This document shows, piece after piece, positions 2,645 to 31,254 of a stretch of 64,000 nt of DNA; within the stretch, counting starts at the first letter, position 1, and the number at the start of each line of letters is the position of its first letter. Origin of the DNA: a phage. The translations under genes and the position numbers were made by a program. Below the pieces are notes generated by a model that was given only the letters and a program-made list of their open reading frames with translations, made no database searches and was not told where the DNA came from. The stretch is taken from NCBI GenBank assembly GCA_014685065.1, contig GCA_014685065.1_4092.1; one strand, given 5' to 3'.

Positions 2645-3042
2645 TGATTAAAGATTTAGATTTTTCAAATTTAGAGATCATCAGTGCAGTGAAGAATATT
2701 ACTGATATGGATGATGAAAAAGGTGTAATGGTAACTATCACTTTCGTAAAGGAAGAGGATAGCTATAAGCATCTTACTGGAATTGAAGAACTAATTCATA
2801 AAACCAATCTTGAGAATGATGGTAAACTCATCAAGCTTCAGGCTTCATATACGCAAAAAACGTCAAATTTTATAGACCTAAATAATGTAGTCAAGGTGGT
2901 ATACAATCATCCTGATCACACATATAGGAACACGACAAGAAATGAAAATGTTGCTAACGATTCGAATATTATCGAAGATGTTGAATTCATAAACACAATT
3001 TTTGATCGTTGTTCTAAGGATTTAAAAAAAGTATACATGTAA
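2644..3042 (+). CDS. hypothetical protein
   Basis: ORF, TAATG overlap start. Confidence 0.5.
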   Translation: MIKDLDFSNLEIISAVKNITDMDDEKGVMVTITFVKEEDSYKHLTGIEELIHKTNLENDGKLIKLQASYTQKTSNFIDLNNVVKVVYNHPDHTYRNTTRNENVANDSNIIEDVEFINTIFDRCSKDLKKVYM

Positions 3043-3043
3043 T

Positions 3044-3071
3044 GGGACATTATATGTTCCAATGATATAAT
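3044..3071 (+). promoter_or_regulatory. sigma70-type promoter GGGACA-N16-TGaTATAAT
   Basis: GGGACA 3044-3049, TATAAT 3066-3071 with TG extended -10; drives ORF-free region. Confidence 0.55.
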
Positions 3072-3344
3072 GTATATAGAAAATGACAACGGACATTGAA
3101 AAATGGACACTGAGAACCTACTTCTCTTGAAAATGTAAAGGATAGATGAGCTTTACCGTTGTAGCGAACAGCAGAAGAAACCTGTTAGAGTACTGGCATT
3201 TAAACAAACACGATGTAAGACCACGAATCACGGCGACACGGCTGTATAAAGAACTCCGATAAGCATACAGAGAGTTCCTAGATAGATGTATAAGGTTCGC
3301 ACCTTACCAGATTTGCTAAGGGAGTTTAAGAATAGCGGACGCAA

Positions 3345-3529
3345 TTTTACAAGAAAGTTGCGTCCAAAATTTGAGAACAGGTACTACTTTGATCGAATAG
3401 AGTTAGTACTGAGTGCTGTTGATGAAAAGACCAGCGACCGTTGCATATGACTGCGATAGAGAGAAACCGAGCAACCCGCTTTCGCTCTCTAAATTTTGGT
3501 ACAAGAAAGATCCGTCCAAAATTTGAGAA
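3345..3529 (+). repeat. duplicated ~33-nt element (two copies: 3345-3377 and 3496-3529) containing exact 17-mer CGTCCAAAATTTGAGAA
   Basis: exact 17-nt direct repeat at 3361-3377 and 3513-3529, each copy embedded in a hairpin. Confidence 0.7.
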
Positions 3530-3567
3530 ATTCGCAATTCGATAATATCCGATGCCATCATCGTCAA

Positions 3568-3592
3568 GAGAGACTTAATTGTCTCTTTTTTA
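3568..3592 (+). terminator. intrinsic terminator inside non-coding region
   Basis: AGAGAC ttaatt GTCTCT then TTTTTTATT. Confidence 0.5.
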
Positions 3593-3731
3593 TTACCTTC
3601 ATTCCCCTGCGGGGGGATGTAATAGTCCTCAACAAATCCCGTCAAGTTTTTAAAGTACATTATCATTTTCAGAAGGAACTAGTTTACGAAGTAAACGCAG
3701 TGACTTCTTGAGTTACGAGAGAACGAAGTGA

Positions 3732-4160
3732 ATGAGTAACACAACGAAAATATACGATAAATCTGAATTAACACAAATGTTATTCAAAGAATATTTTGAG
3801 TTTCAGATAAAAGACGAACATCAATTACCACAGCAATATTTGAAAAGAATTAAAGATCCGTCAGTAATTACTAAAGAAACTAATTTTTATAATAGTATTT
3901 TAGATTTCGTTAAATCAGTTCATACAACAAGACCTATTGTAGTTTTGTTTTTTGATAAATCTATTCCTTTAGTAGTTCCTGAAAATGTATTTTTTATCTC
4001 AGAAACTGATTTAAATAATCAAAGTACTGTAAGTAGATTAAGAAATTGCTTACTTGTAGTATGTGATTCTTCTTTGTATATTAATAGAATACTATGGGAT
4101 AGAAGTAAACGCAATGCAGTTTCGGAAATGAATCCTGAAATTACCTTTATTATTAACTAA
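3732..4160 (+). CDS. hypothetical protein
   Basis: ORF 142 aa. Confidence 0.5.
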   Translation: MSNTTKIYDKSELTQMLFKEYFEFQIKDEHQLPQQYLKRIKDPSVITKETNFYNSILDFVKSVHTTRPIVVLFFDKSIPLVVPENVFFISETDLNNQSTVSRLRNCLLVVCDSSLYINRILWDRSKRNAVSEMNPEITFIIN

Positions 4161-29233: not shown

Positions 29234-29614
29234 ATGTTTCCAGAACCATCACATAACAGTACTGAATATCAAAATAATTTACTTTCCAAAGTTAGGGAAG
29301 TACATGAATCAGATTCAGAAATAACAGACCGTATGCTTCTGATGTCAATTTTTGAAAATTTCAGAACTGGCGGTGGTTTACGTCTTAGTAAGTTTGGGTA
29401 TGGAATTTGTAAAGAAAATAATCTTTATGAATTTACAAAAATCCCCTTGCAAAGAGAATTTAAAAGTTCTATAATGTTTACATCACTTGACAGAATATGT
29501 ACTTCACCTTACTATGTTGAAGGTCAGTACATATATCTGACAGATGCAATGATAATAACTGAATTAACATTGTGTTGTGATGATTTTAAACAGTTATTTT
29601 CTATTCATATGTAA
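29234..29614 (+). CDS. hypothetical protein
   Basis: ORF, GGAG RBS. Confidence 0.45.
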   Translation: MFPEPSHNSTEYQNNLLSKVREVHESDSEITDRMLLMSIFENFRTGGGLRLSKFGYGICKENNLYEFTKIPLQREFKSSIMFTSLDRICTSPYYVEGQYIYLTDAMIITELTLCCDDFKQLFSIHM

Positions 29615-29637
29615 GAAAAATGAATTAAAAATAAATG

Positions 29638-29665
29638 TTGACAAGATAGAATGATGTGATATAAT
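29638..29665 (+). promoter_or_regulatory. sigma70-type promoter TTGACA-N16-TGaTATAAT (P1 of tandem pair)
   Basis: TTGACA 29638-29643, TATAAT 29660-29665. Confidence 0.6.
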
Positions 29666-29732
29666 AAGCATCAGACATAAAGTTTTCAAGCGTCACAAGA
29701 TGTGAGTTTGAAAAAAAAAGAAAAAAAGTGAT

Positions 29733-29760
29733 TGACAAGTTGAAACGATGTGATATAATG
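29733..29760 (+). promoter_or_regulatory. sigma70-type promoter TTGACA-N16-TGaTATAAT (P2 of tandem pair)
   Basis: TTGACA 29733-29738, TATAAT 29755-29760; near-duplicate of P1. Confidence 0.6.
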
Positions 29761-29928
29761 TTCACATCAAGACAGCAAAGAGATTTACCTTTTAAACACA
29801 CGGATGATTCATGAAGTAACAAAGGAACTGATAAGTTAAATTATTTTAACACAGTTCCTTTACTTTTGCCCACGGATTGGCTATAATAGAAACTTAAACG
29901 ATTTTATCCAACAAAAGGAAATATATAC

Positions 29929-31254
29929 ATGACTACTCAAAACGATATCCTGAACGTTAAACTGACTCCAAAGAAAGCTAAAGAAGCAATGGCACTGGCT
30001 GACATGATTCAAGATAGCCTGATGATTTGGGGTAGCCCAGGTATCGGTAAGTCTGCTATCGCTCGTCAATATGCTGATGAAAATTACCCACTGCGTAAAG
30101 ATAACGTAGCTAAAATCGAGTTCATGAAACAACAAATCGAAGCTGACCCTGAAAATGCTGATCAGCTACGCCGTGAACTGGCTGCATTTGAAGCAAAACT
30201 AATCGACCAAGATACTAACTTTATCGATTTCCGTTTGTCTCAAATTGAACCAAGTGACCTTCGCGGTATCCCTGTACCAGAGAAGCTTTTCCGTAAAACT
30301 GACGGTTCTCTTCTCAAAGAATCTGAGCTTGCTGAAGCAAAAGATTATGTGGCTGAAACTGCTGTAGTATGGGCTGCACCTAAAGTACTGAAATTGTCCG
30401 AAGATTGGAAAGGTGTTATTCTGTTTGACGAAATTAACTCTGCAATGCCTATTGTTCAGGCAGCGTCTTATCAGCTAATCCTCGACCGTTGTGTTGGTGA
30501 GATGAAGCTACCTAAGACTGCACTGATTCTTGCAGCAGGTAACCGTGAAACTGATGGCGGTGTAACGTTCTCTCTTGCTACACCACTGCGTGACCGTATG
30601 ACTCACATTGAGATGATTCCTTATCATCAAGATTGGATTAACGATTATGCGATTGCAAAACGTTTGAACCCAGCAACTGTTGCGTTCATCAACAACACTG
30701 GTTCTAAGTACTTTAACACACTTAGCCCACAAGATCCTTCTCACAGCGGTGGTACTTCTCCACGTTCATGGGAAGCAGTAGCACGCTACGAAGATCTCAA
30801 GAAAAATAAGACAATTGATAAAGAAGTGTTCCGTGCAATGATTGCTGGTCGTGTTGGTGAAGGTGTTGCGACTGAATACATTGAGTACGTTGAGAACGTT
30901 GCTAAACTACCAGATACTATGTCTATTCTGTCTGGTGAAATCAAAGAAATCGACGCAACGCTGGATATTTCTGCGAACTACTTTATCACTCTGAACTTGG
31001 TTTATAAAATTATCGACCTGTTCAATGAGAAGCAAGAACAACGTCTACCAGTGGAAGAATGGGGTAAACTGTGTAACAACTTCATCACCTTCCTAGACCA
31101 TAACTTCTCTGCAACTCAAGCAGAACTGGCAGTACTGGCAATTCGTACCATCACGCTTCATAAGGTTGCGATTTCCATTAAAGATGTACCAGCGTTTAAA
31201 GATTTCATCGCTAAGTACTCTGAACTTGTACGTAAAGCACGCTCTCTTGGCTAA
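29929..31254 (+). CDS. MoxR/RavA-like AAA+ ATPase
   Basis: Walker A GSPGIGKS, Walker B ILFDEIN, AAGNRE sensor region; strong CTG/CGT/GGT codon bias. Confidence 0.7.
   Translation: MTTQNDILNVKLTPKKAKEAMALADMIQDSLMIWGSPGIGKSAIARQYADENYPLRKDNVAKIEFMKQQIEADPENADQLRRELAAFEAKLIDQDTNFIDFRLSQIEPSDLRGIPVPEKLFRKTDGSLLKESELAEAKDYVAETAVVWAAPKVLKLSEDWKGVILFDEINSAMPIVQAASYQLILDRCVGEMKLPKTALILAAGNRETDGGVTFSLATPLRDRMTHIEMIPYHQDWINDYAIAKRLNPATVAFINNTGSKYFNTLSPQDPSHSGGTSPRSWEAVARYEDLKKNKTIDKEVFRAMIAGRVGEGVATEYIEYVENVAKLPDTMSILSGEIKEIDATLDISANYFITLNLVYKIIDLFNEKQEQRLPVEEWGKLCNNFITFLDHNFSATQAELAVLAIRTITLHKVAISIKDVPAFKDFIAKYSELVRKARSLG

Follow-up and report, generated by a model that had tools for sequence, protein, structure and literature searches.

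A predicted large pseudoknotted RNA of Rak2-like jumbo phages and bacterial integrative elements carries a conserved stem-loop module at two of its helices

GOLLD and ROOL, and likewise OLE, raiA and HEARO, are RNAs several hundred nucleotides long that fold into many covarying helices and pseudoknots, are borne by phages or mobile DNA and possess a promoter of their own. ROOL and GOLLD are reported to form RNA-only homo-oligomers (PMC12286853). The RNA family described below is of the same general kind as these large ornate RNAs and is unrelated to them in sequence and structure. It differs from GOLLD and ROOL in its hosts, which are jumbo phages and integrative elements of Enterobacterales, in the presence of four diverged paralogs per genome and in a module that switches between two helices. 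Oligomerisation of this kind would be one possible use of a conserved hairpin, were it exposed.

The family is undescribed, being absent from Rfam 15 and from the literature searched. None of the 4227 models of Rfam 15 matches the window (the whole stretch of 64 kb of phage DNA that was analysed) at gathering thresholds. At E-values up to 10, the region 2950-3800 yields solely chance-level matches of the snoRNA type, and at E up to 5 no match is common to 11 divergent homologues. The GOLLD, ROOL, OLE, HEARO and raiA models do not match the window locus or these 11 homologues at permissive thresholds, and ARAGORN predicts no tRNA or tmRNA gene in the window. The literature searched, including the genome papers of phages CBB and PA5oct, does not mention the family, and ncRNA002, one of four lncRNAs of PA5oct defined by RNA-seq, gives no nhmmer match with the filters off. 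Bacterial type A RNase P RNA is similar in size and in its pseudoknotted architecture, and a few short strings (CGACCnGUGCA..., AGAGAG(C)AAACC and GUAAGGG) presumably resemble S-domain motifs of E. coli M1 RNA. These strings differ in order and are not colinear with M1 RNA, the RNase P models give no score at E up to 10 in the window or up to 5 in the 11 divergent homologues, and no P4-type CR-I/CR-V pairing was identified in the family; RNase P RNA was rejected on the grounds of string order and lack of a model match, and the resemblance is treated as coincidental. Nor did the core show a link with any other known ribozyme or ribonucleoprotein.

The window is 99.9% identical to Escherichia phage vB_Eco_slurp01 (slurp01), an Asteriusvirus of the PBECO4 type. 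The locus occupies a 689-nt gap (3043-3731), left blank in most GenBank records and annotated in some with up to four small, spurious “hypothetical proteins”. An earlier note, made from the letters alone, had regarded it as non-coding, and comparison with relatives bears this out: the gap harbors only three short ORFs, all of which are disrupted, by stops or by frameshifts, in JNE01 and A4, the closest relatives (86% and 79% DNA identity), and a protein-coding gap was therefore rejected. Indels in the alignment of homologues are not multiples of three. From the proximal to the distal end, and leaving aside two helices given further below, the locus comprises the following features.

3044-3071, + strand: sigma-70-type promoter with an extended -10 element (GGGACA-16-TATAAT with TG upstream; 10 of 12 matches plus the TG in a promoter scan).
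3079-3591, + strand: predicted structured non-coding RNA core of ~510 nt, its start placed from the -10 element and its end from a hairpin plus T-run.
3086-3162, + strand: 5' domain, in which 3086-3092 pairs with the loop 3156-3162 (pseudoknot 1), with a hairpin at 3118-3145 bearing the conserved loop GAAAAUGUA and a stem 3150-3152/3163-3165.
3381-3409, + strand: hairpin whose loop 3392-3397 (AUCGAA) pairs with 3538-3543 (UUCGAU), forming pseudoknot 2.
3440-3483, + strand: most conserved core, with pseudoknot 3 formed between GUUGC (3440-3444) and the loop of helix 3459-3463/3479-3483, which contains the partner GCAAC (3471-3475).
3550-3563, + strand: 3' hairpin CGAUG/CAUCG, not conserved as drawn.
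3570-3585, + strand: terminator-like hairpin GAGAC/GUCUC followed by U6 (3586-3591), closing the conserved block.
3602-3646, + strand: G+C hairpin UUCCCC-UGC-GGGGGG, then a box AUGAAAAUG.CCUCAACAAAUC.CGUCA, accompanying every RNA copy.

Judged from sequence, the promoter would be expected to drive expression of the ~510-nt RNA. The TGnTATAAT element is kept upstream of the homologues, as in a copy residing on an E. coli island, with promoter TGTGATATAAT. In the copies of GAP32, CBB and Yen9-04, TGAAACG is found at -35 in place of the sigma-70 type; this sequence corresponds to what has been called, in CBB and GAP32, a “divergent RpoD-like promoter” (PMC5259590).

Homologues were gathered by scanning IMG/VR with a motif of the most conserved segment and by applying an nhmmer profile to the DNA collected. 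This resulted in 55 nhmmer matches and 46 distinct full-length copies in ~16 sequence clusters, the window locus being matched at 3099-3654 with E = 2e-144. The structure proposed on the 46-sequence alignment comprises 109 pairs in 19 helices, including three pseudoknots. Canonical pairs fill 86.5% of the cells, against 37-42% when partners are slid by one to three columns, and 74 of the 109 pairs have changed on both sides. Cells with double changes number 685 versus 216 ± 11 in shuffles, and the covariation score reaches 0.367 versus 0.144; none of 500 shuffles attains the observed value of either measure. The whole RNA has a minimum free energy of -127 kcal/mol (z = -3.7).

Single helices are also very clean. 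In the 5' domain (helices 1-3), pairing amounts to 80.7%, 93.4% and 100%, and 6, 7 and 2 pairs have changed on both sides; its pseudoknot 1 is 81% paired, six of seven pairs being compensated. Helix 3168-3172/3241-3245 is 99% paired, while helix 3251-3255/3273-3277 is 97-100% paired and displays four or five pair types per position. The hairpin 3381-3409 (helix 9) is 88.5% paired, with compensation at 10 of 11 pairs. Its loop engages in pseudoknot 2 (helix 10), which is 99.5% paired with five of six pairs compensated, as exemplified by the covarying partners AUCGAAU/AUUCGAU, UUCAUGU/ACAUGAA, AUUGUAU/AUACAAU and UGAAUU/AAUUCA. The core, enclosed by helix 3452-3456/3532-3536, is the segment that blastn still recognises in Klebsiella phages; pairing is complete (100%) in its helices 12, 13 and 14, among which is pseudoknot 3, and changes on both sides affect 3, 4 and 4 of their pairs. 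At the 3' end, the hairpin CGAUG/CAUCG (helix 17) is only 37% paired, and the terminator-like helix (helix 18) is 94.5% paired, with four of five pairs compensated, in the 22 copies having it. The G+C hairpin and its box are found in phage, IMG/VR and bacterial copies. This hairpin (helix 19) is 98.2% paired, and all six of its pairs vary solely between C-G and U-G; such one-sided G-U to G-C changes fit an RNA read from the + strand and not from the opposite one. Taken together, the comparative data suggest that the locus qualifies, in the generic sense, as a structured non-coding RNA gene.

Two further ideas were considered for the 3' segments. The G+C hairpin (3602-3616) presumably resembles a type I-E CRISPR repeat, but no CRISPR-DR model matches 3592-3660 at E up to 10, and an RNA anti-CRISPR was rejected for this reason. 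A CGUCAA-type motif, which recurs at the 3' end of the RNA and within the box that follows, was also discarded, as the 7-mer CGTCMAA is no commoner in the window than in shuffles.

At this locus, the earlier note had pointed to an exact 17-nt direct repeat, to a similar context before each copy and to the position of each copy as the 3' half of a hairpin. All three observations hold. The 17-mer CGTCCAAAATTTGAGAA has exactly two sites, 3361-3377 and 3513-3529, both on the + strand and both preceded by TACAAGAAAG; a local BLAST of the gap against the window widens the similarity to 30 nt with 93% identity (3348-3377 versus 3500-3529). The 64-kb window contains no further match to the 17-mer on either strand with up to three mismatches allowed, nor, by local BLAST, any other significant similarity to the gap. 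The two copies are non-tandem, lying 152 nt apart inside the structured core. The hairpins to which they contribute, 3322-3380 (-20.7 kcal/mol, z = -6.5) and 3484-3531 (-12.4 kcal/mol, z = -3.9), are each more stable than all of 200 shuffles.

One conserved stem-loop module is present twice in the RNA, each copy on a helix of its own, and each 17-mer makes up apical and 3'-strand parts of its copy. The element is thus a peripheral part of a ~500-nt pseudoknotted RNA gene and not a stand-alone one.

3324-3378, + strand: helix P-s1, module copy 1 in its extended form, with a 12-bp apical stem of GGACGCAAUUUU (3337-3348) with AAAGUUGCGUCC (3354-3365) and loop ACAAG; it contains the 17-mer 3361-3377.
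3486-3528, + strand: helix P-s2, module copy 2 in its compact form, consisting of UCUC/GAGA, a bulged U, AAAUUUUGG/CCAAAAUUU, a second bulged U, AC/GU and the 11-nt loop AAGAAAGAUCC; the 17-mer is at 3513-3529.

Site s1 comes directly after an invariant UAAGGGA in all copies, and P-s2 directly follows the pseudoknotted core. The compact architecture, as at s2 of the window, has a stem ...AAAUUUUG(G)-U-AC, an 11-nt loop A-R-N-A-N-A-G-W-U-S-C and a 3' strand GU-C-CAAAAUUU.... In the extended architecture, as at s1 of the window, a 5' insert GCGRYYG...AUUUAU (here GGACGCAAUUUU) pairs with the 3' half of the compact “loop”, resulting in a 12-bp stem closed by a 5-6-nt loop (U)ACAA(U/G). The module consensus (U)ACAAnAnAG-WU-SCGUCC-AAAAUUUGAG, with the loop sequence GAUCCGUCC, is kept across genera, and the exact identity of the two 17-mers is due to both copies sitting at the family consensus. 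In a logo of 36 distinct instances, the information is concentrated on AC, A.AG.U.CGUC and AAUU, that is on the loop and the 3' side, with the 5' strand near zero. The sequence of the 17-mer region is therefore conserved, and not merely its ability to pair. Changes of the 3' strand are compensated on the 5' strand, for example CUUGAAUUUGAAC with GUUCAAUUUAAGG in Munch-type copies.

The four-pair helix at the base of P-s2 (3486-3489/3525-3528) displays strong covariation and is kept even where copies have a short hairpin only. Of its four pairs (columns 506-509 with 551-554), each of the first three shows compensation in 4 to 16 sequences; the third is unpaired in 4 sequences, and the fourth has letters in 22 sequences only. 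The earlier note had looked to structure and covariation as a check of its element: the host RNA provides both, as described above, but support for the module as a single hairpin is modest. One hairpin model for all instances is 61.7% paired, against 33-46% when slid, and pairs changed on both sides are no commoner than in shuffles. This modest result reflects the existence of at least two architectures and renders the module's own fold less certain than that of the core. The fold given here relies on per-instance folds and on the conserved base helix instead of one common model.

The module recalls CsrB/CsrC, 6S RNA, ToxI and RNA anti-CRISPRs, as a short conserved hairpin repeated in one RNA, borne by phages or mobile DNA, with sequence conserved over pairing. 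It differs from these in occurring in 0-2 non-tandem copies and in forming part of a large conserved core, which they lack; neither a GGA motif nor a toxin gene nor any likeness to CRISPR repeats was detected. ToxI-like antitoxins are made of direct repeats of ~34-36 nt arranged in tandem, with the gene of an endoribonuclease toxin immediately downstream. A type III antitoxin RNA of this sort was rejected in view of the spacing of the non-tandem copies and of neighbour genes that differ between paralogs. Resemblances to a CsrA site (RUACARGGAUGU) and to Hfq motifs (ARN) were discarded for the lack of a GGA motif, of colinearity and of consistency across variants.

The RNA is widespread among jumbo phages. 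By blastn, the gap is matched in 72 jumbo-phage records, typically at about four places per record, from phages of Escherichia, Salmonella, Klebsiella, Cronobacter, Yersinia, Erwinia, Pectobacterium, Serratia and “Xanthomonas”. The Rak2-like jumbo phages examined encode about four RNA paralogs each. In slurp01, four were found, all on the + strand of the 348-kb genome.

29,495-29,946, + strand: copy A, immediately behind the gene for the rpoD-like sigma factor; RaK2 has its copy at the same place.
~135,417-135,896, + strand: copy B, two genes before the Dam methyltransferase; same context in Serratia phage BF and in XaC1.
~188.0 kb, + strand: copy C, the copy of the window.
~266,811-267,283, + strand: copy D, in the SbcCD/baseplate region; same context in Munch and Hallingskeid.

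These positions are conserved across genera, indicating that the paralogs are old. Gene neighbours differ from one paralog to the next.

Copies also reside in bacterial chromosomes. Of 5,426 complete E. coli genomes searched by blastn, two, those of strains EEC_W5 and LR-29-1, contain the RNA (74-76% identity), in both cases on the same ~10.5-kb island adjoining ffs. This island encodes a tyrosine integrase split by IS3, hypothetical proteins, a DuOB / DUF488 / mSLOG-DUF4326 trio and a resolvase, and its RNA has a TGnTATAAT promoter of its own and retains both modules as well as terminator, G+C hairpin and box. Scanning a single genome per species for a motif uncovered nine more full-length copies. 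Seven of them are assigned to genomes or metagenome bins of Enterobacterales (Citrobacter amalonaticus, Enterobacter chinensis, Silvania hatchlandensis, two Serratia, Enterobacteriaceae RIT714 and an uncultured Enterobacteriaceae bin); the remaining two come from contigs of metagenome bins, one from a Buttiauxella bin and the other 2.8 kb long with the label Clostridium, and either may be mis-binned. A recurring synteny, fullest in four loci, consists, in order, of a tyrosine integrase or large serine recombinase, the RNA, an oppositely oriented cI-like HTH/S24 repressor, an HTH_35 protein, a 286-aa protein and an invertase. Among the 72,556 plasmids searched, none carries a copy.

The distribution of the module was followed by sequence search and with a covariance model of the module, R1. 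The earlier note had suggested a modular RNA element or a protein-binding site in preference to chance, and had regarded occurrences scattered at random over the genome as the observation that would contradict it. Such scatter was not found in the window plus 264 kb of slurp01, which represent ~76% of its genome, that is all but ~84 kb at 149-183 kb and 298-348 kb. The 15-mer CGTCCAAAATTTGAG has three occurrences there and the 12-mer GTCCAAAATTTG, with one mismatch, one extra, and all four lie at the same two structural sites, s1 and s2, of paralogous RNAs. R1 detects four credible matches in the 264 kb, again all at s1 or s2 of paralogs: s1 of slurp01 paralog A (48.9 bits), s2 of the window (3483-3533, 44.8 bits, E = 2e-6), s1 of paralog B (23.1 bits) and s1 of the window (3336-3378, 22.3 bits). 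The remainder is a 21.7-bit reflection of the paralog A hairpin on the opposite strand, and matches of at most 17.7 bits with E above 1. Over 953 kb of loci, all 36 matches with E up to 1 fall inside copies of the RNA, 35 of them on the RNA strand. R1 also matches each of the 10 bacterial loci searched. The same stem-loop of ~30-50 nt thus occurs at two helix tips of a covarying RNA, and the modular character claimed for the repeat is upheld; that it may be a protein-binding site is plausible.

Across the 46 homologues, the module is present at s1 only, at s2 only, at both sites or at neither. It is found at s1 only in BF-type B copies, in slurp01 A and B and in Munch-type D copies, and at s2 only in GAP32-type C copies and in the cluster that includes GAP32 L076. 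Both sites are occupied in the Asteriusvirus C copies, among them that of the window, and in the orthologues of JNE01 and A4. The Asteriusvirus D paralog, one per genome, has a module at neither site, which indicates that the module is not essential to the core. The module is therefore optional and position-swappable, with zero, one or two copies per RNA. In the alignment, 8 of the 10 bacterial copies display the module sequence at both sites, and R1 scored both sites in four. As the two-module state is widespread among phage and bacterial copies, it is an old arrangement and not a recent local duplication, and is probably the shared, ancestral one.

What the module does may be approached from its pattern of conservation. 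The sequence is kept whether it lies in the 11-nt loop or in a duplex, and the 5' partner strand is free to vary. The most likely function, and on balance a somewhat probable one, is therefore to dock a trans-acting partner, a protein or a second RNA, in a sequence-specific manner. The modules of P-s1 and P-s2 would then cap two peripheral helices of the pseudoknotted RNA, the window RNA offering two docking sites; the core would supply a scaffold or an activity, and the modules would recruit or tether the partner. Contexts differ among paralogs, no neighbour protein is common to island and phage copies, and the 257-aa protein flanking the island copy has no jumbo-phage homologue, so that a neighbour protein was rejected as the shared partner. 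A protein partner would consequently have to be a host product conserved in Enterobacterales, or else a phage product that acts in trans on the RNA of the island. Against a docking site stand the modest support for a common hairpin model and the Asteriusvirus D paralog without any module. Its high sequence conservation could, moreover, equally reflect a tertiary contact within the RNA.

Such an intramolecular element, the loop or minor groove of which would dock into a receptor in the core and stabilise the fold, has precedents. Peripheral elements stabilise the fold of group I introns and RNase P RNA, and contacts of this type are commonly used by large pseudoknotted RNAs. Both sites are helix tips beside the most conserved pseudoknotted core, and their loop sequences are conserved. 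A fixed receptor is nevertheless hard to reconcile with a module that sits on either helix or is missing while the core sequence remains unchanged. In addition, the conserved sequence is sometimes fully paired by the cis insert, which would mask a contact between loop and receptor, and no column elsewhere was found to covary with the module, although heavy phylogenetic clustering of the data limits this comparison. We therefore consider a tertiary element unlikely.

The locus might alternatively act as DNA or as an R-loop, for instance as one of several replication origins primed by a structured transcript, with the repeats serving as initiator sites on DNA. ColE1 RNA II and phage T4 oriF/oriG are the analogues, and the likeness to their transcripts resides in a ~500-nt intergenic transcript with a dedicated promoter, in the G-rich sequence that follows and in multiple copies per large genome. 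Four copies are dispersed over the 348-kb genome (at ~29.5, 135.4, 188.0 and 266.8 kb), each with its own promoter and then a G-rich hairpin and A+T-rich DNA, and the single copy carried by small mobile elements would, by analogy, fit an origin borrowed from another replicon. The comparison remains an analogy only: there is no homology to RNA II or the T4 origin transcripts, no equivalent of RNA I, no replication gene consistently adjacent and no copy on plasmids. We know of no description of pseudoknots and heavy covariation for either of these transcripts. Compensatory changes, the tolerance of G-U on one strand only and the three pseudoknots indicate selection on a folded RNA, and the position of the module varies between copies. 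An origin thus appears quite improbable.

A conformational switch fares worse still. In this scheme, the segment UCUCUAAAUUUUGG (3486-3499) would pair with either 17-mer, and the alternative folds would regulate termination or a downstream gene. The segment is indeed complementary to both copies of CCAAAAUUUGAGA, and a terminator-like hairpin lies downstream, but the local hairpins are strongly favoured, accounting for 74% (copy 1) and 31% (copy 2) of the ensemble. Furthermore, many homologues with one or no module keep the terminator and the box, and the downstream gene differs between paralogs; Munch, Hallingskeid and the bacterial elements have it in the opposite orientation. A switch is very improbable. 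As to a chance match or a recent functionless local duplication, A+T-rich phage DNA does yield many short repeats and only two copies were seen initially, but the comparative data already refute it, with the same sequence at the same two sites in Asteriusvirus, Mimasvirus, Eneladusvirus, unclassified phages and bacterial elements that are only 65-80% identical overall, and nowhere else in 0.95 Mb.

With the module read as a docking site, the shared occurrence of the RNA raises a further, tentative possibility, which we hold to be rather doubtful. The RNA may be an ingredient that Rak2-like jumbo phages share, in a relation of conflict or dependency, with small SOS-inducible integrative elements of Enterobacterales, which could be satellites or defence islands. 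The element copy would then be a decoy, a sensor or a hijacking handle for the factor that recognises the module, and the four phage paralogs would represent related ribonucleoprotein or RNA-only assemblies differing in their number of docking modules.

Rak2-like jumbo phages (PBECO4, 121Q, RaK2, K64-1, GAP32, CBB, BF and others) are in development for therapy and biocontrol, and most of their genes have no assigned function. The family described here adds a new class of large RNA to the short list known in phages, GOLLD and ROOL. Its conserved hairpin of 30-50 nt provides an experimental handle, being open to mutation, transplantation or use as bait. Were the module to recruit a factor of the host or the phage, an unseen step of jumbo-phage infection or of the conflict between phages and satellites could come to light. 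Should the conflict or dependency reading be true, the RNA would represent a new class among large phage RNAs, distinguished by a recognition hairpin that is defined and transplantable.

The slurp01 genome carries four diverged paralogs of the pseudoknotted non-coding RNA, all on the + strand and each within a gap of ~650-840 nt that is unannotated in the slurp01 record:

slurp01 LT603033.1 29,495-29,946, +, RNA paralog
slurp01 ~135,417-135,896 (L136 36417-36896), +, RNA paralog
slurp01 ~266,811-267,283 (L137 18811-19283), +, RNA paralog
window 3079-3650, +, RNA paralog, window copy with the downstream G+C hairpin and box

The paralogs occupy conserved positions in different genera: following the gene for the phage sigma factor, preceding the Dam methyltransferase, and adjoining SbcCD/baseplate genes. 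At the homologous locus, several GenBank records (SHEFM2K, SD-2_S15, E9.1, JP4, WPEC3 and others) have one to four "hypothetical proteins" annotated over the RNA gene; these are probably mis-annotations, because the corresponding ORFs are not conserved. Slurp01 also harbors a 2.2-kb stretch devoid of annotated genes amid very small ORFs (76,123-78,315; L003 27,124-29,314), in which nhmmer found no match to the RNA, i.e., the two are not homologous.

The conserved stem-loop modules at helix tips of the RNA have loop sequences that vary by lineage. AAGAAAG or AGGAAAG is found in both window modules, in the close Asteriusvirus relative JNE01 and in slurp01 paralog A, and AAUAUAG in slurp01 paralog B and in the majority of the other phage and bacterial copies. 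At one and the same module loop position, GAUCC and GUUGC occur as linked variants, the latter being identical to the core strand 3440-3444, which pairs with GCAAC.

Downstream of the RNA lies a second conserved feature:

window 3602-3646, +, G+C hairpin UUCCCC-UGC-GGGGGG followed by the box AUGAAAAUG.CCUCAACAAAUC.CGUCA

The hairpin and box are found 3' of every RNA copy, including the BF-type copies that have no intervening terminator hairpin. Variation of the hairpin pairs is restricted to C-G versus U-G, which argues that the hairpin probably acts in the + strand RNA. Together, hairpin and box bear a loose likeness to a type I-E CRISPR repeat; no Rfam CRISPR-DR model matched the hairpin region (window 3592-3660) at E-values up to 10. 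In the interval that separates the box from the following gene (window 3690-3731; columns ~850-960 of A1, the alignment of RNA copies with flanks), ACGAAGURA motifs are repeated (UUUACGAAGUAAACG and GAACGAAGUGAAUG), and they are found again 3' of other RNA copies. GAP32, Hallingskeid and Munch possess an extra conserved hairpin-like block, AAAUUCUUWGACAWUCGAAGAWUGGC.

In bacteria, a complete RNA copy resides on a ~10.5-kb island adjoining ffs in E. coli EEC_W5 and LR-29-1 (L139). The EEC_W5 coordinates are:

NZ_CM130020.1 241,200-251,544, island locus (L138)
L138 8942-9495, RNA copy

Other genes of the island are those for an integrase split by IS3 and for a resolvase, plus the trio DuOB / DUF488 / mSLOG-DUF4326, which resembles a conflict or defence cassette. 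Directly after the RNA come ~700 nt of additional non-coding DNA (L138 9496-10208). Single copies are found in GTDB genomes (L140-L148: a Buttiauxella bin, an uncultured Enterobacteriaceae bin, Silvania, Citrobacter, Enterobacteriaceae RIT714, two Serratia, a "Clostridium" bin and Enterobacter), flanked on one side by an integrase, either a tyrosine or a large serine enzyme, and on the other by a pair made up of a cI-like S24 repressor and HTH_35. Such loci look like small SOS-inducible integrative elements, perhaps satellites of jumbo phages. In Serratia fonticola, ParB/RepB-like genes come next instead of this pair.

Upstream, the RNA copies of GAP32, Yen9-04 and CBB (L005, L006 and L007; A1 columns 40-90) are preceded by TGAAACG-N-TATAAT, the "divergent RpoD-like promoter" reported 5' of DNA-synthesis genes in CBB (PMC5259590). 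The presence of this promoter sequence suggests that RNA paralogs or lineages may differ in their timing of expression.
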